Shown: piece by piece, positions 4,551 to 63,423 of the stretch | Layout of the letters: the number at the start of each line of letters is the position of its first letter | Numbering within the stretch: the stretch's first letter is position 1 | Source: Myxococcales bacterium | GTDB taxonomy: Bacteria; Myxococcota_A; UBA9042 | Reading direction: 5' to 3' | Assembly (NCBI GenBank): GCA_009692425.1 | Contig: SHZF01000006.1 | Coordinates: 5,704 to 69,703 of the forward strand | DNA length: 64,000 bases | Notes under the pieces: model-generated | The model's input: only the letters and a program-made list of their open reading frames with translations | What the model was told of the DNA's origin: nothing | The model's database searches: none | Program-made: the position numbers and the translations under genes

Positions 4551-5915
4551 TCAGGCTGCCGCAGTCGGCGTGGCCGGTGCCCTGGCGCTGGTTTCGAGCG
4601 CGGACCCAAACGCCGCACCGGGCAGCGGGCCCGCCTTGCCCATCTTCGTCCGCGCCGGGTTGAAGTAGCCGAACCGCAAATTCGGATGGCGGCGGCGCAA
4701 TTCATGGACCATCGCGAGCATTCCGATCGGCGCGGCGACCGCGTCGGGGCCGAGCACGCGCAGGTAGAGTTCCGGGTCGATGTTCAGGTTGCGGAGCTGC
4801 ACGAGATGGACCCCACCGCGATCGATGAACTGCGAGAGTGCGTCCACTTCCACTGGCGAGTCGGATACGCCCGGGAACATGAAGGCGTTCAGGCTCACGT
4901 ACTTGCCGCGGCTCGACATCTCCACCGCCGACTGCAGGACGTGGTCGAAGGTGTAGCCGCGCGGCTTGTAGTAGGCCGTGTACAACGCGGCCCGCCCGGA
5001 GTTCAGGCTGATGCGGATGCTGTCGAGTCCGGCGTCGGCCAGTCGCGCCACGACCTTGGGCAACGACGCGTTCGAATTCAGGTTGACCACGCCGTTCGCA
5101 GTGCGCCGTCGGATGCCGCGCACGGTCGCTTCGAGCACCTTCGGCTGCATGAGCGGTTCGCCCTCACAGCCCTGGCCAAAGCTGACGACACCGTTCGGCA
5201 CGCGTTCCAAGTGCTGCACAGCCAGTTCGATCAGGTCGTCGGAGCCCGCCGGCGTCGCGATGCGGTCGTGGTTGGCGGCGAAGCTGGAGCCGGTCTGATC
5301 CGAGATGCAGCCGACGCACGCCGCGTTGCAGGTCGATGCAGCCGGCATCGGCGCTTCCCAGCGGCCCAGGAAGAAGTTCTGCGCGGCCCGGCAGTGGTAG
5401 ACGAGCGCGCAGTGCTCGATGTGCGCGAGCGCCCGGTTCGCCGGCGACGCCTTGCGGATGCGCCGCACTCCGCGCTGCACCGCCGCGATGTCGAAGCGGT
5501 ACGGGTCCTGGCGCGGGTCCGCATCGACGCGCACGGCCGGCACGACGAAGCGGCCGTTCATCCAACCGATGGCCGTGTACGCGTACAGCGGAAGGTCCGG
5601 GGCGCCCGGCGCGGTCTCGAAGGCGGGGTGGAGCAACCGCAGATACGCCGGCGCAACGAAAGCCGCTGCCGCCTGCAGCGGACCCGTGTGTGCATCACCC
5701 TCGACTTCGACCAGTTCGTCGATGCCCGCGTCCACTGCCAGCGGACGGCGGCCCGGCAGCACGAAAACGTCGCTCCCCTTCGGCAACGCGATCATCTCGA
5801 CGGCCAGCGGCCGCCGCAGGCTGTCGCCGTCCCAGCAGACCAATGCAAGGTCGGGGTGGTCGAAGATGCGCCCGGCGGAATCGGCGACCACGGCACGCGG
5901 GAAAAGGTCAGGCAT
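4551..5915 (-). CDS. Radical SAM domain protein (CX3CX2C = CNAACVGC) with an ~190-aa N-terminal domain of unknown function
   Basis: Canonical radical-SAM Cys triad, followed by GQGCEGEPLM (a SAM-binding glycine-rich motif). Confidence 0.75.
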   Translation of the reverse strand: MPDLFPRAVVADSAGRIFDHPDLALVCWDGDSLRRPLAVEMIALPKGSDVFVLPGRRPLAVDAGIDELVEVEGDAHTGPLQAAAAFVAPAYLRLLHPAFETAPGAPDLPLYAYTAIGWMNGRFVVPAVRVDADPRQDPYRFDIAAVQRGVRRIRKASPANRALAHIEHCALVYHCRAAQNFFLGRWEAPMPAASTCNAACVGCISDQTGSSFAANHDRIATPAGSDDLIELAVQHLERVPNGVVSFGQGCEGEPLMQPKVLEATVRGIRRRTANGVVNLNSNASLPKVVARLADAGLDSIRISLNSGRAALYTAYYKPRGYTFDHVLQSAVEMSSRGKYVSLNAFMFPGVSDSPVEVDALSQFIDRGGVHLVQLRNLNIDPELYLRVLGPDAVAAPIGMLAMVHELRRRHPNLRFGYFNPARTKMGKAGPLPGAAFGSALETSARAPATPTAAA

Positions 5916-5924
5916 GGGAACTCG

Positions 5925-7085
5925 CTACAGCGTGACTTGGGCGTTGAGCAGCACGTTGAAGCTTGCGATTTCGCCCAAGTTGGCGCCACTGACGCTGGTC
6001 GAGGCGTCCTTCGCGGACTTCACGAACGGGATTTGCACGGCGGCCCCGATCTGCGCGACCTTGAGGTACGTGCGCAGCCCGAACGTGCCGAGCCACACCC
6101 CCTTGACCATGGGAGCGTTTTCCAGTTCGAACAGGCCATCCAACTCCGCCGCGATGCCGACGATGCCGAGGTCGGCCAGCAGACCTGCGCCCACGTTGGC
6201 GTACCGCATGCGCTTTGCGGCACCAAACAGCTTGTCATCGACGGCCTTCGCCATGGGACGCAGATCGACGTACTCGCCGCGCGCGGTCACCTTGACGAAC
6301 ATCAGGTCCACACCGACGACGGCATACGGCGCGTACGACAGGTAGCTGTGCAGGTAGCGCGGGGTCGCGAGCACGTTAGAAAGCGCGATCGTGTCGGCGT
6401 CGGCAGTGCCCGTGGGTGCGTACACGCTCACGCCGGTCGTCCACCCAAAGCCCAGGCTGCCCGCGCCGTAGGCGTCACCGGTGTGCAGGTCGAGTCCGAG
6501 GTTGCCGAGTTCGAACGAGTCGCCCTTGTCGTTGTGGAAACCGGCAATGGCGATCTGGGCCGTCGCTTCGAGCCAGCGCAGGTTCAGGCGGGCGTACGGC
6601 TCGACCGAAAACGTTGTCGTCTTGGCCGGTTTCGACGCGTTCTGGTAGACCTCGACCAGGGTCGCCATCGTCTTGAGCTTCGACGAGTCGATCGTGGCGA
6701 GGTAGGCCTTCTGCGCCGCGGTCGGCGTCTGACCGTGGGCCTTCATCTGGTCCTCCATGGCCTTCTTGAACTCCTCGGTCTTGCCCGCATCGGCAAACTC
6801 CTTCATCTGCTTGGCGTCCACGTACTTCAGGTACTCGACCATCTTCGCGGCCTCGGGATTCGACTTGGCCTGTTCGTCCACCGCCTTCTTCACCGCCGTC
6901 TGGATGACTGCCTCGACAGGAGCCACCTGGAAGTTGGCGCCCGCCGAAATGAACCGGTCCCTTGCGTCGTGTTTCACGGTGCGGCCGACGAACAGGTCGC
7001 CGTTGTTGAAGGGCCGCGCGTTGGCGACACCTGCGGCGCCGATCAGGCCGCACGCCACCATGACTGGCACTGTCCCCCGCTTCAT
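5925..7085 (-). CDS. Secreted protein of unknown function with signal peptide MKRGTVPVMVACGLIGAAGVANA. 386 aa; Gly/Ala/Val-rich C-terminal half, possibly a beta-barrel.
   Basis: Clear N-terminal signal peptide. No recognizable catalytic motifs. The stop lies 9 nt upstream of the radical-SAM start, so an operon is likely. Confidence 0.55.
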   Translation of the reverse strand: MKRGTVPVMVACGLIGAAGVANARPFNNGDLFVGRTVKHDARDRFISAGANFQVAPVEAVIQTAVKKAVDEQAKSNPEAAKMVEYLKYVDAKQMKEFADAGKTEEFKKAMEDQMKAHGQTPTAAQKAYLATIDSSKLKTMATLVEVYQNASKPAKTTTFSVEPYARLNLRWLEATAQIAIAGFHNDKGDSFELGNLGLDLHTGDAYGAGSLGFGWTTGVSVYAPTGTADADTIALSNVLATPRYLHSYLSYAPYAVVGVDLMFVKVTARGEYVDLRPMAKAVDDKLFGAAKRMRYANVGAGLLADLGIVGIAAELDGLFELENAPMVKGVWLGTFGLRTYLKVAQIGAAVQIPFVKSAKDASTSVSGANLGEIASFNVLLNAQVTL

Positions 7086-7285: not shown

Positions 7286-9370
7286 ATGCCCCAGCACCAG
7301 GCCCCCGAGCGCTACCGAGGCACCTTCTTCGCCCTTGCCGGGGCGCTGACGCTGCTCGGCATCGCACCCATCTGGGTGACCGACATCCTGCCCGTCGTCG
7401 ATGTCGGCTCGCACCTGCACCTGATCAAGATCCTGCACGAGTACGGCTCCAGCGAACTGTTGCAGCGGCACTACGTCAAGGTCGACGCGATCGTGCCGTA
7501 CCTGACCTACTACAAGGCCGTAGATGTGCTCGCCTATTTCGCCCCCATCGAGGTGGCGAACCGCATCGTCCTGTCCGTGGTCGTCGCGGCAATTCCCTGG
7601 TCGGCCTACGCGCTGATTCGGCGAGCGGGGCATGACCGTTGGCTCTTGTTCGGTGTGCTTCCGTGGATGCTGAACCCAGACTTCTTCATGGGGTTCTTGA
7701 ACTTTCTGATGTCGATTCCGCTGTTCCTCTGGCTGCTGTGGGCGCACCTCGGTCTGCTGCGGCGGCCGACGTGGGGCCGCGCGGCGCTCGTCGCAGGCCT
7801 GCTCTGCCTGATGGCGACGACGCACTACCTGCTGTGGGCGGTGGCGCTCGTACTGTTGCCGCTGCTCGCGCTCGTGCACGGCGGCCGCAACGGCTGGCTC
7901 CGCGGGTTGGGCTGGCCGCTGCGCGAGGCGCTGCTCGGCCTGCCGTCAGTCGGCGTACTGATGCCGTGGTTCCTGACATATTTCGTGCTCGCAGACGGTG
8001 TCGCGACGTCGGATCAGGTCGCCAATGCCGCCCAAGGCAGTCTGTGGACACGGCTCGGCAGCGTGTACTCCGGCGAACACCTCGGCCCGGTAGAGAACCT
8101 GCGCCAGTTGTTCGATCAACTGTTCGACGCCATCGATGCGCCGGCGGCTCCGGCCAACCTCTTGCAGCGCAAAGGAGAGCTGATCAGCACGCTGTGGCTG
8201 GCGGGCCTGCTGCTGTGGTTCATCGGCGCCGCCCGGACGCCGGCCGAGTCGACAGACGCCGCGCAGCCGGACCCGACCGCCCCCCAGGGCCGGCGCGACA
8301 CTCCCGTTATTTCAGGCACATCCTACCTCGGCTGGGTGCTGTTGCTGTGCGCTGCGGCCTATTTCGTGCTGCCCAAGCACATGGTGCGACCGATCTGGTT
8401 GTGGGGCGTGAACTTTCGCCTGGCGGAAGTGCTCGCCATCCTCGCGGTCGTCGCCCTGCCCCTGCGACCGTTGGCCGCCGCTGTGGGCGTGCGGGGCCGC
8501 GTCTGGGTCGGGTCGTGTCTCCTGTTCGTGGCGGCCTGTTGGCTGCCCATCGCGACCATCGAGTCATTCCTGTTGGCTCGCACCGAATTCGGCGACATCC
8601 GCCGCGCGCTGGCCACCATTCCTCCGGGCCACAAGGTGCTCGTGCTGCGCCGCAAGCTGCTCAGCAGGCACATGAAGTACACAATATTCAACAATATCAC
8701 AGAGTACTATGCGGTCCTCGTCGGCGGCTACGTGCCGTATTCGTTTGCCGACACGTCGTCCAAGCCCTTCGTCGTCAACCGCAAGTACGCGGTGCCCGCG
8801 CCGCCGTGGGACACGCCGGACGCTTTCAGTTGGGAAGCGCACGGTCGCTACTACGACTACCTCGTCCTGTTCGGCGAATCGGGTGCGGCCCGCGAGCCCT
8901 ATGAAGACCAACTCCCGGCCACGCTGCACACCGTGTACCAGCGCGCCCAATGGCGGGTTCTGCGCAATCCTGTGCCGGCGCAGTGGCCCGAATGGACGCC
9001 GGCCCAATGGGCGGCGGACGCCGACACCCGCATTGCGCGCCGCGTCGAGCCCCTGTTGGCCTTGCGCGCTGCTGCCGACGCAGGTTTTCGCAACCACCTC
9101 GATGCAACCGACGCCGCCGTGGCGGCGGTGCTCGACGCGCTGCCGTGGCTGGAGAGGCGCTGGTCGATTGCCGCCCGTGTCGGCTGGCCGGTCTCGTCGG
9201 CGGCTCCAGTCCAGACAGACGGGGTGTCAGGTCACGGGCCGGGGGAGCAACCAGAAGCGCTCAAGGGGGCGGCGGAGCCTGCGCTGGAGCGACCCTACGT
9301 GCCTGCGGATCCGGGGCCGGACCCTGCCATGGTACCGCCGGAATTGGGGCGACCGTCGTCGACGCCATGA
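7286..9370 (+). CDS. Polytopic membrane protein (about 12 TM, ~450 aa) with a ~240-aa C-terminal soluble domain; putative GT-C-fold glycosyltransferase
   Basis: Hydrophobic helices through the N-terminal two-thirds (LLGIAPIWV, FLWLLWAHLGLL, LLPLLALVHG, etc.). It sits immediately upstream of a polyprenyl-phosphate-sugar-synthase-like GT2. Confidence 0.55.
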   Translation: MPQHQAPERYRGTFFALAGALTLLGIAPIWVTDILPVVDVGSHLHLIKILHEYGSSELLQRHYVKVDAIVPYLTYYKAVDVLAYFAPIEVANRIVLSVVVAAIPWSAYALIRRAGHDRWLLFGVLPWMLNPDFFMGFLNFLMSIPLFLWLLWAHLGLLRRPTWGRAALVAGLLCLMATTHYLLWAVALVLLPLLALVHGGRNGWLRGLGWPLREALLGLPSVGVLMPWFLTYFVLADGVATSDQVANAAQGSLWTRLGSVYSGEHLGPVENLRQLFDQLFDAIDAPAAPANLLQRKGELISTLWLAGLLLWFIGAARTPAESTDAAQPDPTAPQGRRDTPVISGTSYLGWVLLLCAAAYFVLPKHMVRPIWLWGVNFRLAEVLAILAVVALPLRPLAAAVGVRGRVWVGSCLLFVAACWLPIATIESFLLARTEFGDIRRALATIPPGHKVLVLRRKLLSRHMKYTIFNNITEYYAVLVGGYVPYSFADTSSKPFVVNRKYAVPAPPWDTPDAFSWEAHGRYYDYLVLFGESGAAREPYEDQLPATLHTVYQRAQWRVLRNPVPAQWPEWTPAQWAADADTRIARRVEPLLALRAAADAGFRNHLDATDAAVAAVLDALPWLERRWSIAARVGWPVSSAAPVQTDGVSGHGPGEQPEALKGAAEPALERPYVPADPGPDPAMVPPELGRPSSTP

Positions 9371-9457
9371 CGGGCCGGCGTGTGTGCGTCGGGTTGCGTT
9401 CACGTTGCTGCTGGGTCAGGCTCGCGCCGCCGGACCGCCAAGGACCGCTCGGACCCG

Positions 9458-10210
9458 ATGGTTGCTGCCCGACCGCTCCTGATCGTCGTGCCGTGCTACA
9501 ACGAAGCGGCGCGTCTGGCTCCGGATCAGTTCGTAGCGTTTGCGAACGCGGAGCCCGGCATCGGCTTTGTTTGCGTCGACGATGGCAGCACCGATTCGAC
9601 ACGGCGGGTGCTGCACGATCTCGCGACTGCAGCAGCAGGCGGCGTCCACGTGGTCGAACTCGACCGCAACGGCGGCAAGGCCGAGGCTGTGCGGCGCGGG
9701 TTGCAGCACGCGTGTTCGCTCAACGCAACCATGGTAGGGTACTGGGATGCGGACTTGGCAACGCCGCTGGACGCCATCGTCCGGTTTCGTGAAGCGCTGG
9801 CCGCCCGCCCCGGCCTCCACGTGGTCCTCGGTGCGCGGGTAAAACTGCTGGGCCGCGCCATCGACCGCACGCCGAGCCGCCACGTCGTCGGGCGCGTCTT
9901 TGCGACGCTGGCTTCGATGGCCATCGATCTGCCGGTGTACGACACGCAATGCGGTGCCAAGCTGCTGCGGAACAGCGAAGTCCTGCGCGACGCCCTGGCC
10001 ACGCCGTTCCGCTCCCGCTGGGCATTTGACGTCGAGTTGCTGCTGCGCCTGAAACGAGGCTTCGCGGCGCAGCAAACCGGGTTGGAGGCGGTTTGCTGCG
10101 AACTCCCGCTCGACAGTTGGCGCGACGTGCATGGCTCGAAACTGAAAGCAGCGGACTTGCCACGCTCGCTGGCCGAATTGGGCCGCATCTGGTGGGAGGG
10201 GCGGCGGTGA
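9458..10210 (+). CDS. Family-2 glycosyltransferase of the polyprenyl-phosphate sugar synthase type (DPM1/GtrB/CsbB-like)
   Basis: PLLIVVPCYNEAARL...VCVDDGSTDST...YWDADLATP (the DxD-type motif). Confidence 0.75.
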   Translation: MVAARPLLIVVPCYNEAARLAPDQFVAFANAEPGIGFVCVDDGSTDSTRRVLHDLATAAAGGVHVVELDRNGGKAEAVRRGLQHACSLNATMVGYWDADLATPLDAIVRFREALAARPGLHVVLGARVKLLGRAIDRTPSRHVVGRVFATLASMAIDLPVYDTQCGAKLLRNSEVLRDALATPFRSRWAFDVELLLRLKRGFAAQQTGLEAVCCELPLDSWRDVHGSKLKAADLPRSLAELGRIWWEGRR

Positions 10211-10233
10211 CGGGACGCGTCTTCGGGTTGCCC

Positions 10234-10650
10234 ATGCGGGCCAAGATGTGCGTCCAGGCGCTCAGCCTGTTGCTCCCTGCCCTTGCCGTGGCCGCCATCG
10301 TGCGCAAGGTCCTCGACGTGCCGCCGCCAACCCCTCTCGATGTGCACCTGCAACCGGACGGCCAGCGGCTCGGGCTGACCGAAGCCCGCCGCCGCGAGCT
10401 TTTTGCCCAGATCGCCGACCACGATGCCGAATGGTGGCAACGCACGGAGCGCTTTGCCGACGCCTGGTCGCGCCATGACGACTACCACGTGCACCTGGGT
10501 CGCTTTGTTACCGAACTGGCCGTCGAGCACGGACTCGATGAGACGACGCTGTTTCTCGTATACGACGAAGGCGTACACCGCCAGTGGCCGGGCACTGCAG
10601 GTCGCCCCCTGACGCCGACGTGGGTCGTGCTGAAGCCGCGCACGCAATGA
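10234..10650 (+). CDS. Small protein (138 aa) with an N-terminal signal peptide or membrane anchor, unknown function
   Basis: MRAKMCVQALSLLLPALAVAAIV... The start is 24 nt after the GT2 stop. Its TGA overlaps the next gene's ATG (ATGA at 10647-10650). Confidence 0.4.
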   Translation: MRAKMCVQALSLLLPALAVAAIVRKVLDVPPPTPLDVHLQPDGQRLGLTEARRRELFAQIADHDAEWWQRTERFADAWSRHDDYHVHLGRFVTELAVEHGLDETTLFLVYDEGVHRQWPGTAGRPLTPTWVVLKPRTQ

Positions 10651-12476
10651 CGACGACCAGACCGCCCGGGGTGACCGCCGCAGCGCCCGCGTCGGAGGCA
10701 TGGTTTGCCATCGTCGGGTTGCGCCTGCTCCTCTGGCTGGGCGTCGCCGCATGGTGGCTGTGGCCCTGGCTGAGCGACCCCTGGAAGGTCGGCGTGTCGC
10801 AGGACGCCGCGTATTTCTTGCACCACGCGGAAGCCGCCTGGCGCACGTGGGTCCAGTACCGTGAGCTGCCGGTGTGGGAGCCTTGGTTCTGCGGCGGCAT
10901 TCCCGGGCTGGGCAACATCCAGAACAACGCCATCTCCCCGACGTTTGCGCTCACGTTCAGCTTCGGGTTGATGCCAGGCATCCGTCTCGGCTGGCTGCTC
11001 TACGTCGTCGCCGGCATGGAGGGCTCGTATCAGTATGCGCGACACTTCGGTGTCCGCGGCGCCGGCGCCGCGCTGGCTGGCGTGGTCTTCGCACTGTCGG
11101 GGCGGTTCGCGCAGTCTTTCTACGACGGCCAGCCGGTATTTCTCGGTTTCGAGCTTGCGCCGTGGGTCTTGCTGGGCCAGGTCGCCGGGCTGCATTCGTG
11201 GCGGGCGGCGGCCGGTGGCGCGGTGGCGATGGCGATCGTGTTCCTGGAAGGTGGTGCCGTTGCCACGCCGCTCCTCGGGCTCGCGCTCGCCGTCGGCATG
11301 ATCGGGCACACGGTCGATGCACTCGTGCGCCGCAACGTCGCGTGGTGGCGGCCGCTGGGCGTGCTCGTCTTCATGGCCCTCGTCACCGCCGGGTTGAGTG
11401 CGCTGCGCCTGCTGCCCGTCGCGGAGACGGTGCTGACCCGTCCGCGCCTCTGGGAGGGGCGCGAGTCGTATGACATTGCCCACTTGTGGGCGATGCTTTT
11501 CGAACCCTCGACCTTGGGTGGCTACGAGGGGCCCGGCACGTCGTACATTGGCGTGCTCACTGCGGTCGCGTGCCTGACCGCGCTGGTCCGTGCCGATGGG
11601 CCAGCGTGGCGGCTTGCGGCGTGGGCAGGTGCGCTGGGTTGGCTGGCGATGGGTTCGCAAAAGTTCGGCGCGTGGGATGCGCTGCAGTACCTGCCGGTGC
11701 TCAAGAACCTGCGCTGTCCCTTCCGGCTGACGTTCCTGCTGGGCCTCTTCACCGCCATCGGTGCCGGGCGGGCGCTGTGGTTGTGTGAGCGCGACTTGCG
11801 GGACCGGCTGCAGGCTCCGCTGAGCCTGCGAGCGTGGCGCCGGTTGCGGGTGCCATCGCAGGGGGCGCGGGCCATCGCGGCAGGCGCAGCGGCAACCGTT
11901 GCCGTGGGCCTCGGCTTCGTCGTCGCCCGCCAGTCTGCGCAGTTCAATGCGGCGCGGGTCGCAGCCGTGCCGACAAAGGCGACGTCGCGCTGGGCCGACC
12001 AGCCCTTCCGCCAGTCGCTGGGCAATCGCTGGCACGCCCACGTGTGGCCCGCCGTCCACCTGGGCAGCCTAGGCTGCTTCGAAGAGCAGCCGTTCCCGAC
12101 CAGCCCGGCACTGCGCGCCGACCTCGCCGCCGAGGAGTACCTCGCCGATGCCGACGCCGGCCACGTCGAGCGCCGCTCCTGGAGCCCGCACCGCATCGAG
12201 CTCGCGGTCGACCTGAAGCGTCCCGCGACCTTGATCGTCAACCAGAACGACCACCGCGGGTGGGGTTCCGATGTTGGCGCGAAGGTGAAGCATCAGGGCC
12301 TGCTTGCCGTGCAATTGCCCGCCGGCCGCCGCATCGTGACCCTGCGCCACCGCGACCCGCTCGTGTTCGCCGGACTCGGGATCACGGCCCTGACGACACT
12401 GGGCCTGCTGGCGTGGCCGCTGCGGGGACGCCGCCGCCGCGACCCGGTCCCAGCCGCGGTGCCCGGCGACGCCTGA
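10647..12476 (+). CDS. YfhO-like GT-C-fold membrane glycosyltransferase (610 aa)
   Basis: N-terminal multi-TM region. The C-terminus DHRGWGSDVGAKVKHQGLLAVQLPAGRRIVTLRHRDP matches the characteristic YfhO-family end motif (...GW.A.VDGK.V.....AV.VPAGKH.V.F.YRP). It is translationally coupled (ATGA) to the upstream small ORF. Confidence 0.6.
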   Translation: MTTTRPPGVTAAAPASEAWFAIVGLRLLLWLGVAAWWLWPWLSDPWKVGVSQDAAYFLHHAEAAWRTWVQYRELPVWEPWFCGGIPGLGNIQNNAISPTFALTFSFGLMPGIRLGWLLYVVAGMEGSYQYARHFGVRGAGAALAGVVFALSGRFAQSFYDGQPVFLGFELAPWVLLGQVAGLHSWRAAAGGAVAMAIVFLEGGAVATPLLGLALAVGMIGHTVDALVRRNVAWWRPLGVLVFMALVTAGLSALRLLPVAETVLTRPRLWEGRESYDIAHLWAMLFEPSTLGGYEGPGTSYIGVLTAVACLTALVRADGPAWRLAAWAGALGWLAMGSQKFGAWDALQYLPVLKNLRCPFRLTFLLGLFTAIGAGRALWLCERDLRDRLQAPLSLRAWRRLRVPSQGARAIAAGAAATVAVGLGFVVARQSAQFNAARVAAVPTKATSRWADQPFRQSLGNRWHAHVWPAVHLGSLGCFEEQPFPTSPALRADLAAEEYLADADAGHVERRSWSPHRIELAVDLKRPATLIVNQNDHRGWGSDVGAKVKHQGLLAVQLPAGRRIVTLRHRDPLVFAGLGITALTTLGLLAWPLRGRRRRDPVPAAVPGDA

Positions 12477-12503: not shown

Positions 12504-14693
12504 CTACAGCAAGCCCGTGTCGAATCCGGCCGCGCGGTAGACCTTGCCCGCGTTCTTGCACTCCTGGCGCGCCGCGAACTCAAAGTGGCGAAAGTGGACC
12601 ATCGTGCCTTCTGCCGCGGCCTGGTACGCGCCGCGCAGTACCGCGTTCTTGATGTGGCCGCCGGACAGTTCGAAGCGCCGGCCGAGTTCGTCCCAGTCCA
12701 TGGCCGCATCGACCGGACAGGTCCGGGGCACCAGCGTCTTCCAGATGCGCCCGCGCAGATCCGCTTCGGGGAACGGGAAGTGCACCTTGAAGTTGATGCG
12801 CCGCTGGAACGCTTTGTCGATGTTCTTCTCCAGGTTCGTCGTCAGGATCACGATGCCTTCGAAGTTCTCGATCTCCTGCAACAGCATGTTCGTCGCCATG
12901 TTGCTGTAGCGGTCCACGCTCGAATCGACCTTCGTGCGGCTTGCGAACAGCGAATCGGCCTCATCGAACAGTAGGATGCCGTGGCTGGCGCGCGCGGTCT
13001 GGAAGATTTTCTCGATGTTCTTCTCGGTCTCGCCGATCCACTTCGACACGACGCGCGGGATCGCGATCTGGAAAAGCTGCTGGTCCATCTCGTTGGCCAG
13101 GATCGTCGCACACAGCGTCTTGCCGGTGCCAGGGTCGCCCGAAAACAGCGCGACGAGGCCCTTGCCGGTCGTCAGTTTGGCGCCGAAGCCCCAGTTGTGG
13201 ATCACGTGGAGCCGCTGCTTGGCCGCCGTGAACATCTCGCCGATGTCCTCGACCGTCTCCTTGGGCACGATCAGGTCGGCCAGCTTGAGTCCCGCGCGGC
13301 GCCGCACCGCATACTCGTCGAGGCTGGCCCGAATCTGTTCGTGGCACGCGGTGCGCAACATCTCGTGCGAGATCACCGGCGCTTCGGGGTTGGCGGCGAA
13401 GGCACGGTTGACCGCCACCTGCATCGCATTGCGCAGCAGCGCGCCGGGGAACTGGTACTGGCCCGCGGTCGACGCCACGTCGCAGTCCGGCGCAAACGCC
13501 ACCCCTTCGGGCTTGTGCAGTTCGAGGATGCGGCGGCGCTCGTCGGCCCCCGGCGTCTCGAGCACGAGTCGCTGCAGCACGAAGCGGTCGAGGTTGCTGT
13601 CCAGCGCGGAACTGTCGAGCGACGTGAGCACCGTGATGCCCGGGTGGCGCTGCAGCATCTCCTGCACGTCGCCGACGCGCGCCGAGCCCTTGCCGAGCAC
13701 GCCATCGACGCCATCGAGCACGGTCACGGCGTCCAGCAGCCGCGCCTGGTCGAGCGAACTGAGCAGCGTGCGCCGAAAGTCGGGCTCGGGCATTTCCGTC
13801 AGCTTCGTCGCGTCGAGTTCCAGCAGCGGCTTGCCGAGGAACTTGCAGATGCCGTGCACGACCATCGTCTTGCCGGTGCCGGGCGGCCCCGACACTTCGA
13901 CGACGATGCCGAGCGGCAACGCGAACGGCGACGATTCGAGCCGAAACGCCTGGCGGCGCGCCTGGATGTCGAGCAGCGTGACCAGCGGCGCCAGCGTGCC
14001 CTCCGGCAGCACGACGTCTTCGAGCCGTGTCGTAGGACGGTGGAACGTCGCAAAACTGCTCATGGTCGTATCGAGCAGGCCGACCTCGCCGAGCAGCAAC
14101 TGCAGCGTGCGCGGTGCCGGCAACACCTCGTAGCCCAGCAGGTTTTCGCCGCCCTGATCGCGCGGTCGCTCGATTTGCACCAGCCGGCTGCGGCGCAGAT
14201 CGGACTCCGGCAAGAAGCGCCCACGCAGCCCCAACCGCTCGACCGGGTCGTGGACCAGGAACTCCAGGCATAGCCGCACATCGACGTAGTTCGCCAGCAG
14301 GTTGTCGTTGAAGCGGGCGATGGCGTCGCGCACATCCACATCGACATGCGGTGCCACGCTGAGCAGCAGGATAAGACGGTCGATGTCGTCGAGTTCGGCC
14401 TGCTGCGCCAGTTGATCGATCGGCAGTTGGATGCCGCGCGTCGCCGCTGCCTCGGCAATCGCCTGCAACGCGTTCGCGTGGGATTGCACTTCCACCTGCG
14501 TCGGCTCGACGGAAAGCACGGCTTCGTCTTCGTTGAGCCCGGCCGCGCGCGCCTGGCGCACCTGGGTCGCCATCACGAGGCGGGCGCGCAGGTGTTGGCA
14601 AGCGGTTGCCAGCCATTGCCGACACAACCGCAGGCGCACGGCGGGGTCGACAGGGACCTCGGTCTTGGCGGGGACGAGCTTCAGGCGGGCCAT
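12504..14693 (-). CDS. Tandem AAA+ ATPase (729 aa): N-terminal ~270-aa domain, a degenerate first AAA module (GPPGTGKT, weak Walker B) and an intact second AAA module (GDPGTGKT / LLFDEADSL)
   Basis: Both P-loops are seen in translation. Sensor-like residues (TTN...) follow the second domain. The gene is monocistronic: divergent from ccmF and convergent with the glycosyltransferase operon. Confidence 0.8.
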   Translation of the reverse strand: MARLKLVPAKTEVPVDPAVRLRLCRQWLATACQHLRARLVMATQVRQARAAGLNEDEAVLSVEPTQVEVQSHANALQAIAEAAATRGIQLPIDQLAQQAELDDIDRLILLLSVAPHVDVDVRDAIARFNDNLLANYVDVRLCLEFLVHDPVERLGLRGRFLPESDLRRSRLVQIERPRDQGGENLLGYEVLPAPRTLQLLLGEVGLLDTTMSSFATFHRPTTRLEDVVLPEGTLAPLVTLLDIQARRQAFRLESSPFALPLGIVVEVSGPPGTGKTMVVHGICKFLGKPLLELDATKLTEMPEPDFRRTLLSSLDQARLLDAVTVLDGVDGVLGKGSARVGDVQEMLQRHPGITVLTSLDSSALDSNLDRFVLQRLVLETPGADERRRILELHKPEGVAFAPDCDVASTAGQYQFPGALLRNAMQVAVNRAFAANPEAPVISHEMLRTACHEQIRASLDEYAVRRRAGLKLADLIVPKETVEDIGEMFTAAKQRLHVIHNWGFGAKLTTGKGLVALFSGDPGTGKTLCATILANEMDQQLFQIAIPRVVSKWIGETEKNIEKIFQTARASHGILLFDEADSLFASRTKVDSSVDRYSNMATNMLLQEIENFEGIVILTTNLEKNIDKAFQRRINFKVHFPFPEADLRGRIWKTLVPRTCPVDAAMDWDELGRRFELSGGHIKNAVLRGAYQAAAEGTMVHFRHFEFAARQECKNAGKVYRAAGFDTGLL

Positions 14694-20080: not shown

Positions 20081-20241
20081 GGCCTGGGTGCGCTCCTGCA
20101 TTGCGCCGGGGCTCGCAGTTACAGTAGGCTGATACCGGGACGGGACTCCCGGCAACTCACCGAACTGGACCGCCCGCCTTGTCGCGTGCGGCCCGTTGCC
20201 CTACATTCGGCCGCCTTCGCGCTCCGCCGGAAACCCCCTCC

Positions 20242-23200
20242 ATGGCCGCCGCTTCCCACTCCCTGCGCCCCGACGCCGACGAACTCGACGCTTCGTCGCT
20301 CGTCGACAACAGCTACCGCATCGTGCGCCTGATCGGCCGCGGCGGCATGGGTTCCGTCTACGAAGCAGAAGACATCCGGCTCGGCCGCTCCGTCGCGCTC
20401 AAGGTGTTGCGTTCCGACCTCGCCAAGGCGCTGCAGGCCGACGAGCGCTTCATGCAGGAAGCGAAGATCCTCGCGCGGATCCGATCGCCGTTCGTCGCCA
20501 CGGTGTACTCGGTCGGCGCAACCGAGGCCGGCCGCACCTACATCGCGATGGAGTACATCGACGGCGAATCGCTCGGCGATCTGCTCGACCGCGAGCGCTG
20601 GCTGCCGCTGCAGCGCGGGGTCCGCATCGCCCAGCGCTGCTGCGAGGCGCTGATGGAAGCCCACAAATTGGGCATCATCCACCGCGACCTCAAACCCGAC
20701 AACGTGCTGCTGACGCGCATCGGCTCCGTCGAGGACTACGTCAAGGTCGTGGACCTCGGCCTTGCCAAGCACGTGCACCCGGCTGGCAACACGTTCAACC
20801 CACGCCTGACGCAGGCCCGGTTGGTCGTCGGCACGCCGGCCTACATGAGTCCGGAACAGGCCGCCGGCCAGGAAGTTGGCCTGCCATCGGACCTCTACTC
20901 GCTCGGCGTGATCCTGTACGAGATGATTACGGGATACCTGCCCGTCGATGGCGAGTCGCCGCAGGACTTCCTGCGCGCCCACCAATTGCAGGCGCCACTG
21001 TCGGTCAACCAGCGCCGCCAGGACCTGGTGTTCCCGCCGGTCGTCGACGCTTTTTTCAAGAAGGTGCTGGCAAAGGCTCCCGGCGACCGACCCCAGGATG
21101 CGCGCGCGTTCGCGCGGGAACTCGAAAAGTTCGAGGGAATCTCCGCGGAATCGCGCACCACGCGCCAGACCGCGCCGGCCCATGGTGCGCGCACCCCACG
21201 CAAGCACGCCTCGTCGGTGGCCCCGACGATCGATCTGCTCGAAGAGCGCCTGGACCGGGCGAAGGACCGCGTCCGCCTCGAAGTGATCGGTGTGGTGTCG
21301 TGCACCCGCGCCATGCTCTACGAGACGATCGACACCTTTGTCGGCCAGGTCGCCGAGCGCGCGGACGCGCCGGTGGTGATGCGGATCCGCGTGCCGCCGC
21401 CGGGGCGGCGCTTGCCGCTGGCGTGCCTTTTCGAAGAAATCCGAATTCGTGCCGGGTTGTTCGACGACGACGCGCCATCTGCTGCACGGCGCAAGTTGCT
21501 CGGCTGGGTCCAGGCGCTCATGCCAGACCGGCCCGACCGTGCGAGTCAGGTCGCACACCTGATTGGCCTTTTTCTGCGCGTGGAGTTCCCCGATTCGCCG
21601 CACCTGTCGCACGCGCGCGCCGTGCCAGAGGTCGCGCGCATGGCGGGCGGGGCGGCGTTGGTCGATGCCCTGCGCGGAATCGCTGGTCGATCCACGCTCG
21701 TGCTGATCCTCGAACGGTCGGATCACTTCAGCGAGACGGAGACGGTGTTCCTGCGCCGGTTGGTGCGCCAACTCGGTGCCACGCCCGTGCTGCTGATCGG
21801 TGCGTGGGTCAGTCGCGGCGACGACGTGCCCGCCGGGCTGGCCGGCCTGTTCCTGCCGGGTTCGGTGGCGCGGGTGCCCGCCAAGGACGCGTTGCAATTC
21901 GACCGACTGCTCGACGCGCCAGCCCGCCGCGCGCTGGCGACCGTCGTGAGGTTGGGCGCGCCGGTGTGGCCGGACCTGCTGGAGGCCGCCTTGGGCGTGC
22001 CGGCCGCCCCGAGCCTGGCCCGGCTGATGGCGGCAGGCGCCGTGCGGTCGATGCCCGCGAGCCGACTGGCGTCACAGGTCGAGTATTCGCTCGGCGATTT
22101 TCCCGATGCCGTGGCGGCGGAATCGGAACAGGTCGAGATCGACTACGTGCGTGTGCTCGCCTGGATTCACGCCCAGGCCGTCGTGCGGCCCGAACTCTGG
22201 GTCGGCCGTCTCTCCACGATCGAGGCGCAAGCCGGCGACCTCGTGATGGCCGGCGCCCACGCGCGCCAGGCCGCCGAACTGATGCGGGGGCTGGGTGCCC
22301 TGCCTGAGGCGCTCCAGCAGTTTGAGGTCGCTCGCCAGCACGCGCTCGACCTGCGCACGGCCGGCAAGATGACCGAGGGCGCCATCGGCCTGGCTGAGGC
22401 CGCTTCGAGCCTGGCGTCCTGCCTGGCCGAGCGCGGCGATCACGAAGCCGCGGCGGACCGCACCCGCGAGGCCATTGAAGCGCTGCGGCAGTTGCCGGGC
22501 TTGCGCGAAGAGGACTGGTACCGGCTCGGCGTGCCCCTGCTGGCTGCCTGGGCGACGAGTGAGACTGCGTGCGGGCGGGCGGCGGGCGCGGTGCCTCCGC
22601 TGGAGACGCAGGTCACGCTCCTGCTGAAGTCACAACTTCCGCGCGCGGCGGAACAACTGCCGTTCGTGCGCCTCGCGTTGGGCAAGGCGCTGGGCGCGAC
22701 GAGCAACGTCCGCAAGGGCCTCGAGGTCTGGACGGCCGCGCTCAACAGCCTGCCGGCGCAGCCGTTGCCCACATTGTCGGCGGAACTGTCGATGCGGATC
22801 GCCGACGCCTACCGCACGCTCGGGGACGGTGACCGCGCCGTTGCCCACGCCCGCAAGGCATTGGCGGCGGCCCGCGATGCCCGCAATCTGGTCGTCGAGG
22901 TGGAAGCGCTCCGGGCACTCGCACTGGCCTTGCGCGACATCGGGGAATTGGACGACGCCGAGGCCCAACTCGGTGAGGCCCTCAATGCCCTCGGTCGGCT
23001 CGACCGTCAGCGCCTGGCCGCGGAAATCTCGGTGCTGCTGGCAGACATCCTGCAGGCGCGCGGGGCCGTCGACGAGGCCGACGCCGCGCTCGCCAAGGCC
23101 TGCCGAGCGTTCGCCGCGCTGCCCGATCTGGTCGGGCTGTCGGATGCCCTGCGGCGGCGCGGCGAAATCCAGATGGCGCACGGCATCTACACGCGCGCCC

Positions 23201-23538
23201 AGGCCTTCGCCGAAGAGGCGGCGCGCCAAGGGCAACTCGCCAGCCATGTGCCGCTGCGCATCAAGGCCCTGTTGTTGGCGGCGCGAGCCTGCGCGGCCGG
23301 CGGCGATTCGAAGCCCGCTCACACGGTCATGGAAGAGGCATTTTCGCTGGTTGCACCCGACGTGCCCACCGTGGAGCGCGCCGACTGCATGGTCGTGCTG
23401 GCCGACCTGCTGGAGGCTGCGGTGCTCACGTCGGATCGCATGCCGCGCTCGTTGCTCGAAGAGGCCAAGGACATCTACCTGCAGGTCGATGCGACGCCCG
23501 AGGCCGAACGCATCGGCCGCCGTCTGCGCGCCATGTAG
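20242..23538 (+). CDS. Ser/Thr protein kinase (1098 aa) with a central NTPase/NB-ARC-like region and C-terminal TPR repeats
   Basis: Kinase subdomains GRGGMGSVYEA, VALKVL, HRDLKPDN, DLGLAK, GTPAYMSPE. The long C-terminal half is Ala/Leu-rich with TPR-like periodicity. Confidence 0.85.
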   Translation: MAAASHSLRPDADELDASSLVDNSYRIVRLIGRGGMGSVYEAEDIRLGRSVALKVLRSDLAKALQADERFMQEAKILARIRSPFVATVYSVGATEAGRTYIAMEYIDGESLGDLLDRERWLPLQRGVRIAQRCCEALMEAHKLGIIHRDLKPDNVLLTRIGSVEDYVKVVDLGLAKHVHPAGNTFNPRLTQARLVVGTPAYMSPEQAAGQEVGLPSDLYSLGVILYEMITGYLPVDGESPQDFLRAHQLQAPLSVNQRRQDLVFPPVVDAFFKKVLAKAPGDRPQDARAFARELEKFEGISAESRTTRQTAPAHGARTPRKHASSVAPTIDLLEERLDRAKDRVRLEVIGVVSCTRAMLYETIDTFVGQVAERADAPVVMRIRVPPPGRRLPLACLFEEIRIRAGLFDDDAPSAARRKLLGWVQALMPDRPDRASQVAHLIGLFLRVEFPDSPHLSHARAVPEVARMAGGAALVDALRGIAGRSTLVLILERSDHFSETETVFLRRLVRQLGATPVLLIGAWVSRGDDVPAGLAGLFLPGSVARVPAKDALQFDRLLDAPARRALATVVRLGAPVWPDLLEAALGVPAAPSLARLMAAGAVRSMPASRLASQVEYSLGDFPDAVAAESEQVEIDYVRVLAWIHAQAVVRPELWVGRLSTIEAQAGDLVMAGAHARQAAELMRGLGALPEALQQFEVARQHALDLRTAGKMTEGAIGLAEAASSLASCLAERGDHEAAADRTREAIEALRQLPGLREEDWYRLGVPLLAAWATSETACGRAAGAVPPLETQVTLLLKSQLPRAAEQLPFVRLALGKALGATSNVRKGLEVWTAALNSLPAQPLPTLSAELSMRIADAYRTLGDGDRAVAHARKALAAARDARNLVVEVEALRALALALRDIGELDDAEAQLGEALNALGRLDRQRLAAEISVLLADILQARGAVDEADAALAKACRAFAALPDLVGLSDALRRRGEIQMAHGIYTRAQAFAEEAARQGQLASHVPLRIKALLLAARACAAGGDSKPAHTVMEEAFSLVAPDVPTVERADCMVVLADLLEAAVLTSDRMPRSLLEEAKDIYLQVDATPEAERIGRRLRAM

Positions 23539-62061: not shown

Positions 62062-63423
62062 TCAGTGGCTGCGCTGCAGGCGGGCAGCGTAGAAAGCGTC
62101 CATGCCCGCCAGCAAGGGGTGTGTGCGGAGATCGCCCGCGGCGTCGAGCAGGGGGCGCACCCACGTCGCGCCGCCCGGGTCGCGGACGAAACCGGGGTGG
62201 GCTGCCAGGAAGCGTCCGACGACGAGTGGCCCCTCTTCTTCGGCAAACGAGCACACGGCGTACACGAGGTGGCCCCCGGGACGCACCAGGTCGGAGGCCG
62301 CCGCGAGCATCCGTGCTTGCAGGGCGTGGTGGCGCGGCAGGTCCGCAGCGCGACGCCGGTGGCGGATTTCGGGGCGGCGCCGCAGCGTGCCCAGCCCAGA
62401 GCACGGCGCGTCGACCAGCACCGCGTCCCAAGCCTCCCGGTCGAGGCCGAGATCGGTCGAGGCGTCCCCGGCGATCGTCGCGTCGAGCGGGTGGCCGGCC
62501 TGGCGGGCCAGCGCGGCGGCATCGGCCAGCTTGGGTCCATCGAGGTCGATCGCCGTCACGCGGGCCCCGGCTGCCGCGAGCGCCAGGGCCTTCACGCCCG
62601 CTCCGGCCGCCACATCGGCGGTGCGAGCACCGGGTGCCGGAGCCAGCCACCGCACGACGGCAGCGCTCGCGGCATCCTGCGCCAGCACCGCCCGGCGCGC
62701 GAACGCCGACGTCGCGAACACCCCGCCGCCATCGGCGCAGCGCACGCCGGGTACCGCCACTCCGTCGAGTTCCGCCACGGCGACGCCTGCCGCGGCCAGT
62801 TCCGCCCACACGAGCTCCGCGTCGCCTGCAGGGACATGCAGGTGCAGTGGCGCCGGCTGATCAAATGCGGCGTGGAGCGCATCGGCATCGAGTCCACAGA
62901 TGGCAGCCAACCGGCGCGAGCGCAGCGCGATCCAGTCGGGGAGCGAAGTTGGGGACCCTGCTTGCGGCAACGTGGCACCGGGCTCCGGCCGCCGCCGCGC
63001 GAGGCCGCGCAGCACCCCATGCACGAAGCCGACCGCGCGCCCCGCGACGAGACCCTTGGCGGCCTCGACCGTCGCATCGACCGCGGCGAAGGCCGGCACG
63101 CGCGGCAGGTACGCGAGTTGGCACGCGCCGACGCGCAACGCGATCAGCACCTCCGTGTCGAGGCCACAGAGCCCGTGGGCGCAAGCGTGTGCGAGCCAGC
63201 GGTCGAGCACGCGCTGGTGCCGCAGGGTCGCGTAGACGAGTTCCGTCACCAGCCCGCGGTCTGGCCCGGCCAACTCCGGCGGAGTGCCCAGCGCCTCGCG
63301 GACGGCGATCTGGCTGCCTGCCGTGCCGTCTTCGACCGCAAGCAGAGCGACGATGGCGCGGCGCCGCACGGACACGCCAGGCGGCAGGCTGTGTTCAGGC
63401 GTCGGGTTGGGCGACAGCGGCAT
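62062..63423 (-). CDS. rsmB: 16S rRNA (cytosine-C5)-methyltransferase RsmB/Sun family (NusB-like N-terminal domain plus NOL1/NOP2/Sun methyltransferase)
   Basis: SAM motifs VLVDAPCSGLGTLRRRPE, AVCSFAEEEG, and the catalytic PC/C pair. Start at MPLSPNPT. The upstream extension is rejected. Confidence 0.82.
   Translation of the reverse strand: MPLSPNPTPEHSLPPGVSVRRRAIVALLAVEDGTAGSQIAVREALGTPPELAGPDRGLVTELVYATLRHQRVLDRWLAHACAHGLCGLDTEVLIALRVGACQLAYLPRVPAFAAVDATVEAAKGLVAGRAVGFVHGVLRGLARRRPEPGATLPQAGSPTSLPDWIALRSRRLAAICGLDADALHAAFDQPAPLHLHVPAGDAELVWAELAAAGVAVAELDGVAVPGVRCADGGGVFATSAFARRAVLAQDAASAAVVRWLAPAPGARTADVAAGAGVKALALAAAGARVTAIDLDGPKLADAAALARQAGHPLDATIAGDASTDLGLDREAWDAVLVDAPCSGLGTLRRRPEIRHRRRAADLPRHHALQARMLAAASDLVRPGGHLVYAVCSFAEEEGPLVVGRFLAAHPGFVRDPGGATWVRPLLDAAGDLRTHPLLAGMDAFYAARLQRSH

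Follow-up and report, generated by a model that had tools for sequence, protein, structure and literature searches.

Do four neighbouring genes of an uncultured myxobacterium form one system for glycosylation across the membrane, and if so, what would each of them contribute? The genes, termed g1 to g4 here, lie in a 64,000-nucleotide stretch of contig SHZF01000006.1 from the Myxococcales assembly GCA_009692425.1; this whole stretch is the window referred to below. An annotation made earlier from the DNA letters and their translations, the sequence-only reading, had described the genes as a three-part membrane glycosylation module with a GT-C membrane protein (GT-C being a membrane glycosyltransferase fold), a polyprenyl-phosphate glycosyltransferase of family 2 (GT2), a small anchored protein and a YfhO-like GT-C protein. 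Its gene observations are confirmed here, and its interpretation is borne out in part. On balance we favour, with moderate confidence, the view that the g1-g4 block is a multi-component transmembrane (extracytoplasmic) glycosylation system. What is new here is modest but real, namely two GT-C families that are not covered by existing models and a conserved partner with a single transmembrane (TM) segment, g3, for the g4-type GT-C protein.

The gene structure is clear. All four plus-strand open reading frames (ORFs) of the sequence-only reading are present, and their GC content at third codon positions of 0.79-0.87 is the bias of real genes in a genome of 68% GC. Because the genes upstream are divergent and the AAA+ ATPase gene downstream is convergent, g1-g4 form a self-contained co-directional unit. 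The ATGA overlap that had been reported between the last two genes is also there. Hydropathy analysis gave about nine or more TM segments for g1, several plus a C-terminal one for g4, one N-terminal segment for g3 and none for g2.

Two GT-C proteins, a small partner and a predicted donor synthase

In GT-C enzymes the catalytic acidic residue sits in the first extracytoplasmic loop (EL1). The g1 protein, which is 100% identical to EXR79_03040, an NCBI hypothetical protein of a Myxococcales metagenome-assembled genome (MAG), has no Pfam or NCBIfam family, and the same is true of 53 close and 48 distant relatives. Searching the g1 and g4 family profiles against PDB sequences also returned nothing relevant. 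The AlphaFold2 (AF2) model of g1 is confident, however, and its top structural matches are exclusively GT-C enzymes. The top Foldseek match is ArnT; AglB, STT3 and PglB are also good matches, and AftA, ALG12, AftB, ArnT and Pmt4 score equally well. The candidate catalytic residue is D39, which the first periplasmic loop contains along with D33, H43 and H45 and which lies nine residues past TM1. D39 does not vary among 54 sequences, and its conservation across 49 distant relatives is at least 90%. The modelled fold together with this conserved acidic EL1 residue places g1 in the GT-C superfamily. Further along the protein, a periplasmic alpha/beta domain is predicted at about residues 440-630, with the invariant motif GYVPYSFAD, followed by a Pro-rich, disordered tail (636-694). 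When 1.84 billion cluster representatives were screened with a g1 profile, 3,756 matched at E≤1e-3 and 1,211 at E≤1e-10; the majority are 500-550 amino acids long and likewise lack a Pfam or NCBIfam family.

The second GT-C protein, g4, is not detectably related to g1, and paralogy of the two was rejected at an hhalign probability of 1%. No Pfam (E≤1) or NCBIfam match was obtained for g4 itself. Weak matches to YfhO (PF09586) were found in 15 of 34 g4 relatives, the best of which (P0006) reached 25.8 bits against a gathering score of 28.5, and the matches fall in the central TM region rather than at the C-terminus where the sequence-only reading had placed the YfhO motif. By these scores g4 is YfhO-like below the threshold and short of formal Pfam membership. 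The YfhO architecture consists of a GT-C core of TM helices, a large extracytoplasmic domain in the C-terminal part and one last TM helix. Predicted features of g4 include a periplasmic beta-sandwich at about residues 455-568, a terminal TM segment at 571-594 and an Arg-rich cytoplasmic tail. Its candidate catalytic residue, D53, lies directly past TM1 and is invariant in the family. As for g1, the AF2 model of g4 is confident and its top structural matches are exclusively GT-C enzymes, and we classify g4 from this model as a polytopic GT-C-fold transferase that is distantly YfhO/AftD-like. The profile hidden Markov model (HMM) searches gave neither a YfhO or other GT-C score for g4 nor a family match for g1, the outcome that the sequence-only reading had named in advance as speaking against it, and the GT-C interpretation of the two proteins survives because of the fold evidence only.

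The small anchored protein foreseen in that reading is g3, with its single TM segment at residues 3-30. An alignment of ten homologues, including some from distant contexts, revealed the conserved motifs RFGL, WSxxDD, YDEG and PLRPR. No Pfam, NCBIfam or PDB-sequence match was found for g3; its counterpart in locus L001, encoded upstream of g4, shares 41% identity with it. A His-rich stretch, HDDYHxH, was considered as a metal site and rejected since its histidines vary in distant homologues.

The assignment of g2 as a polyprenyl-phosphate GT2 is borne out at the level of the domain and its relatives. A GT2 domain was detected by PF00535 at 7.8e-15, and the best PDB sequence matches were ArnC (9hwj, 1.1e-4) and GtrB (5ekp, 2.6e-4), both aligned with the DAD motif of g2 (YWDADLATP). 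Among NCBIfam models, all sub-threshold, E-values were 1.4e-10 for PpgS, 1.4e-7 for the ArnC-type PRK10714 and 2.5e-6 for a dolichyl-phosphate (Dol-P) hexose transferase. By sequence, g2 is a relative of these named polyprenyl-phosphate (Pol-P) synthase equivalogs and a member of none. The g2 family comprises more than 7,900 homologues of about 250 amino acids, many labelled dolichyl-phosphate beta-glucosyltransferase by JGI, and one homologue at 54% identity (P0202) carries a fused GtrA domain (PF04138). The ATG start of g2 agrees with the N-termini of its homologues, and neither the protein nor its in-frame upstream extension holds a hydrophobic segment by hydropathy. We predict that g2 is a polyprenyl-phosphate hexosyltransferase that makes a lipid-linked donor, with the lipid acceptor presumed from these relatives. 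A further g2 homologue, P0167, belongs to a cluster in locus L047 where its neighbours are GT-C genes, one for a PTPS_related membrane protein (PF10131) and one for a GtrII-type glucosyltransferase (PF14264). With another GT2 and a number of methyltransferases also encoded there, the cluster is likely a methylated-glycan modification locus of another lineage.

Genomic context of g1 and of the g3-g4 pair

The association of g3 with g4 is the most regular feature of the surroundings. In 10/10 genome loci, including distant contexts, the g4 homologue has a g3 homologue ahead of it. We also scanned metagenomes for g4 relatives, which yielded at least 529 loci. In the close g4 subfamily, g3 lies immediately upstream in 39 of the 44 metagenomic loci with room for it, and in the distant subfamily in only 3 of 28. 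Gene calls show the same four-nucleotide overlap of the g3-like and g4-like genes in two distant loci, L050 and L051. Since g3 is found immediately upstream of g4 in 39/44 loci, we regard g3-g4 as a conserved cassette that, to judge from these gene orders, often but not always stands beside a GT2 gene and usually stands without g1. A role for g3 as a membrane anchor of g2, similar to DPM3 or GacJ, is disfavoured because g3 tracks g4 and not the GT2 gene across loci.

Genes for a GT2, for flippase-like LPG_synthase_TM or EamA proteins or for nucleotide-sugar modification adjoin the cassette in six independent contexts, L050, L051, L052, L053, L055 and L068. L050 encodes UDP-glucose dehydrogenase, a g4 paralogue, LPG_synthase_TM, g3, g4 and a convergent GT2, while L051 encodes GFO_IDH_MocA, a hexapeptide transferase, a GT2, a DegT aminotransferase, LPG_synthase_TM, g3 and g4. 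EamA precedes g3 and g4 in L052, an orthologue-level g2 gene follows g4 directly in L053 and L055, and in L068 g4 faces a convergent GT2 gene detected by Pfam. In L090 it is a g1-superfamily gene that lies directly behind the g4 homologue. Two paralogues of the g4 family are present in many loci, in some cases each accompanied by a g3 (L050 1444-4389; L051 7754-9508; L068 10682-12988; L112; L129). The LPG_synthase_TM genes (PF03706) beside the cassette in L050 and L051 are candidate flippases for such systems.

The surroundings of g1 are of a different kind. Relatives of g1 were examined in 41 loci from GTDB species representatives, all of uncultured Myxococcota. In one lineage the order ComM-SSB-radical SAM-u386-g1-[slot]-AAA-CcmF is conserved, where u386 is a 386-residue protein and the slot is the space behind g1. 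This slot is empty in L014, L017 and L019, holds g3-g4 without a GT2 in seven loci, holds a convergent GT2 with a PMT_2-like GT-C gene in L003, L007, L015 and L036, and consists of GT2-g3-g4 in the window. In L045 the slot has a GT2 alone, a g2 orthologue of 62% identity that shares 4 nt with the end of g1, and g3-g4 are absent there. The 794-residue PMT_2-like GT-C protein of L003 was considered as a g4 orthologue and rejected. Because the backbone is conserved while the content of the slot varies, g1 appears to be a core gene behind which glycosylation genes repeatedly gather. The idea of a single fixed three-part module did not withstand this synteny comparison, as g1 is found by itself, next to g3-g4 or next to other GT2/GT-C combinations, and g3-g4 usually occurs without g1. 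A distant g1 relative in L048 stands with two tandem paralogues in a glycan cluster that also encodes a GT2, a flippase of the MurJ/MatE type, methyltransferases and an asparagine synthase.

The radical SAM and u386 genes were rejected as parts of the module, being syntenic with g1 (>20 loci) within one backbone only and absent in other g1 contexts; their position beside g1 is probably a matter of conserved gene order and not of shared function. In other backbones, and in a group of g1 paralogues of 32-36% identity, a Peptidase_M50-like (site-2 protease) gene lies directly behind the g1 homologue (L024 12512-13639; L040 11879-12931; also L025, L028, L041 and L042), followed by a gene for a HEAT-repeat protein in L024, L025 and L028 and for a UvrA-like protein in L040 and L041. 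Six loci (L015, L016, L019, L024, L027 and L029) come from MAGs whose GTDB records bear the title 'uncultured Enterobacteriaceae' or 'Klebsiella pneumoniae'. These loci have 67-72% GC and are of Myxococcota type, some with the ComM-SSB-rSAM-g1-AAA-CcmF backbone, and the labels are almost certainly wrong.

The features of the block and its neighbours are collected in Table 1. The AAA+ ATPase also shows a partial match to the anti-phage ATPase IteA and adjoins CcmF in the same conserved backbone. The Ser/Thr protein kinase is typical of Myxococcota and unrelated to g1-g4.

Table 1. Positions of the g1-g4 block and of other features in the window
Feature	Position	Strand	Length	Description
g1	7286-9370	+	694 aa	Polytopic membrane protein, predicted GT-C fold
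g2	9458-10210	+	250 aa from ATG; ORF opens at GTG 9380	Cytoplasmic GT2 (GT-A fold), predicted
g3	10234-10650	+	138 aa	Single N-terminal TM/signal-anchor, conserved domain of ~100 aa
g4	10647-12476	+	609 aa	Predicted GT-C-fold membrane protein, distantly YfhO/AftD-like
ATGA overlap	10647-10650	+		g3 stop/g4 start, read from the sequence; translational coupling
Radical SAM	4551-5915	-		Divergent, upstream; no named subtype, best matches MoaA/BlsE-like and far below cut-offs
u386	5925-7085	-	386 aa	Divergent, upstream of g1; no family
AAA+ ATPase	12504-14693	-	729 aa	Convergent, downstream of g4, then CcmF; double AAA+, N-terminal winged-helix variant domain PF22977, CDC48-like
Ser/Thr protein kinase	20179-23538	+	1119 aa	C-terminal TPR/MalT-like repeats

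Proposed mechanism and competing explanations

For the block as a whole we propose the following route. The g2 enzyme, peripheral at the inner membrane face, would load undecaprenyl or another polyprenyl phosphate with a hexose or N-acetylhexosamine supplied by a nucleotide sugar, as its homology suggests. The lipid-linked monosaccharide would then be flipped by a flippase encoded outside the window. On the periplasmic side, g4 with its partner g3 would use D53 in EL1 to move the sugar to an acceptor. The g1 protein would be a second, unrelated GT-C enzyme acting through D39 in EL1, most likely with the same or a similar lipid-linked donor and with a different acceptor or position. Two acceptors for two GT-C proteins are plausible. 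The observations themselves comprise the gene structure, the GT2 domain, the GT-C folds, the conserved EL1 aspartates and the g3-g4 cassette; we infer the lipid acceptor and sugar of g2, the flipping step, the use of the g2 product by g1 and the nature of the acceptor molecules, which may be lipopolysaccharide (LPS), exopolysaccharide (EPS) or protein.

Several points weigh against this proposal. The mechanism as a whole is a prediction from sequence, gene order and modelled folds, and the catalytic roles of D39 and D53 are candidate assignments from position and conservation. A dedicated flippase gene is missing from the window, in which no GtrA, LPG_synthase_TM, EamA or MATE gene was found, phmmer with GtrA, LPG_synthase_TM and EamA queries was negative, and, apart from g1, g4 and CcmF, the only multi-TM ORF is a truncated one at 63236. 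The scores of g2 are far below equivalog cut-offs, with 40.9 against 370 bits for PpgS (NF058614), 30.9 against 529 for ArnC (PRK10714) and 26.6 against 375 for the Dol-P hexose transferase (NF041391), and the TM hairpin found at the C-terminus of GtrB, CsbB and ArnC is absent from g2. A g2-like GT2 was found within 6 kb of 5 of 50 g3-g4 cassettes, a count made with limited detection. Finally, g1 has no adjoining glycosylation gene in the three loci with an empty slot, where it is syntenic with housekeeping genes, and its adjacency to g2-g4 may be positional only.

The main rival explanation is a smaller functional unit, g2-g3-g4 or only g3-g4, next to which g1 would be an independent, lineage-conserved GT-C protein supplied with a donor made elsewhere, and the slot a variable insertion site. 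The position of g1 in a conserved backbone would fit this explanation, as would a slot that is empty in three loci, filled by g3-g4 in seven and by a different GT2 and PMT_2 GT-C in four. A g1-superfamily neighbour of the cassette in just 1/79 metagenomic loci, and the lack of sequence relationship between g1 and g4, point in the same direction. An independent g1 is harder to reconcile with its 4-nt overlap with the g2 orthologue in L045 and with the co-directional arrangement and short gaps of g1-g4 in the window. Moreover, every filled slot behind g1 contains a glycosylation gene set, and therefore a functional rather than a random association can be argued. We consider the smaller unit possible but on balance unlikely.

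The structural matches of g1 also allow for a different donor. With AglB, STT3 and PglB among the best of them, and with the three tandem distant g1 paralogues of L048 next to a MurJ/MatE (Wzx-like) flippase, g1 and possibly g4 could use polyprenyl-diphosphate-linked oligosaccharides and act like an oligosaccharyltransferase (OST), a ligase or a polymerase on protein, LPS or EPS. However, enzymes that use Pol-P-monosaccharides match g1 equally well, the WWDxG-type OST motif of PglB, AglB and STT3 is absent from the g1 translation, and both in the window and in L045 a Pol-P-type GT2 adjoins g1 or is coupled to it; this donor seems improbable to us. A similarly low probability is given to g2 being an ordinary cytoplasmic GT2 that acts on a soluble or polymer acceptor and does not feed the GT-C proteins. 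The absence of a TM segment in g2 would suit such an enzyme, as would equivalog matches that all fall far below cut-off and include PgaC-type (8.7e-12) and GpgS-type (2e-3) models. Against it, the best full-length matches of g2 are PpgS and the Dol-P hexose transferase and its best solved relatives are ArnC and GtrB, a homologue fused to GtrA exists, and g2 homologues repeatedly adjoin GT-C genes. Pol-P synthases without TM segments are also known, for example GacI, which works with GacJ (PMC8035078).

The multi-component glycosylation system that we favour could be taken further in two respects, both of them tentative and rather doubtful at present. The g3-g4 pair would be an obligate two-subunit GT-C enzyme of an undescribed kind, in which g3, as a small single-pass periplasmic protein with its WSxxDD and YDEG motifs, would provide acceptor recognition or part of the active site. 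The g1 protein would be the founder of a large new GT-C family (>1,200 clusters when grouped at 50% identity, covered by no Pfam or NCBIfam model and possibly by none of the CAZy families) responsible for a conserved envelope modification in an uncultured freshwater lineage of Myxococcota. If the favoured prediction of a glycosylation system is correct, two sizeable groups of hypothetical proteins, 3,756 representative clusters (E≤1e-3) for the g1 superfamily and at least 529 metagenomic loci for g4, could be annotated as GT-C glycosyltransferases. The g3-g4 pair would then be, to our knowledge, the first bacterial GT-C enzyme with a conserved small accessory subunit, and a handle on acceptor recognition by GT-C enzymes. 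No new field is opened by this, as extracytoplasmic glycosylation from polyprenyl-phosphate sugars is well established in Gram-negative and Gram-positive bacteria.

Comparison with known glycosylation systems

Known systems of this type are variable. They can include GT-A enzymes without TM segments, extra small components and non-GtrA or shared flippases encoded elsewhere, and their GT-C proteins are weakly similar and recognized mainly by fold, with several GT-C proteins in some systems (PMC8035078, PMC11127046). The sequence-only reading had pointed out the occurrence in a Gram-negative host. Such an occurrence is ordinary, since the founding Gtr and Arn systems are Gram-negative; the Gtr, ArnC/ArnT and GT136 systems are all of Gram-negative bacteria (PMC8035078, PMC11127046).

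The closest parallels in gene arrangement are the GtrA/GtrB/Gtr* system of Shigella and Salmonella O-antigen, CsbB-GtcA-YfhO and GtlA-GtcA-GtlB, which, like the block, cluster a predicted Pol-P GT2 with a divergent, outward-facing polytopic GT-C protein (PMC8035078, PMC11127046). Unlike these systems, the block has no GtrA or GtcA in the operon or in the 64-kb window, its GT2 is without the C-terminal TM hairpin, it contains two unrelated GT-C proteins, and g4 has a conserved single-TM partner that is no part of the known systems. Relative to CsbB-GtcA-YfhO in particular, g4 falls short of the Pfam YfhO threshold. In the GacI/GacJ/GacK/GacL system of Streptococcus pyogenes, a TM-less GT-A synthase is combined with a small membrane protein, a non-GtrA flippase and a GT-C transferase (PMC8035078), and g2, with no TM helices of its own, corresponds to this GacI-like variant. 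The small proteins differ, however, as GacJ, with three TM helices, is a partner of the GT-A enzyme, whereas g3 has one and co-occurs with the GT-C protein g4, in most loci without an adjoining g2-type GT2.

Compared with mycobacterial AftD and AftA, the g1 and g4 families gave no sequence-profile match, the proteins are much smaller and without an array of carbohydrate-binding modules (CBMs), and the host is a diderm myxobacterium without arabinogalactan. The donor of the block is probably a hexose rather than a decaprenyl-phospho-pentofuranose, with the PpgS/Rv3779 galactosamine (GalN) pathway as the analogue of its donor synthase. Lipid A modification by ArnC and ArnT, a Gram-negative pathway of periplasmic transfer from an undecaprenyl-phosphate (Und-P) sugar, supplies both the best solved sequence relative of g2 (ArnC) and the top Foldseek match of g1 (ArnT), yet no ArnA, B, D, E or F genes are nearby and all matches of the block are far below equivalog scores. 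Because g4 is below the YfhO threshold, g1 has no family, g2 is below equivalog cut-offs and there is no flippase in the window, the block is formally a member of no named family, yet, as reconstructed here, it works like Gtr, CsbB-GtcA-YfhO, ArnC-ArnT and GacIJKL.

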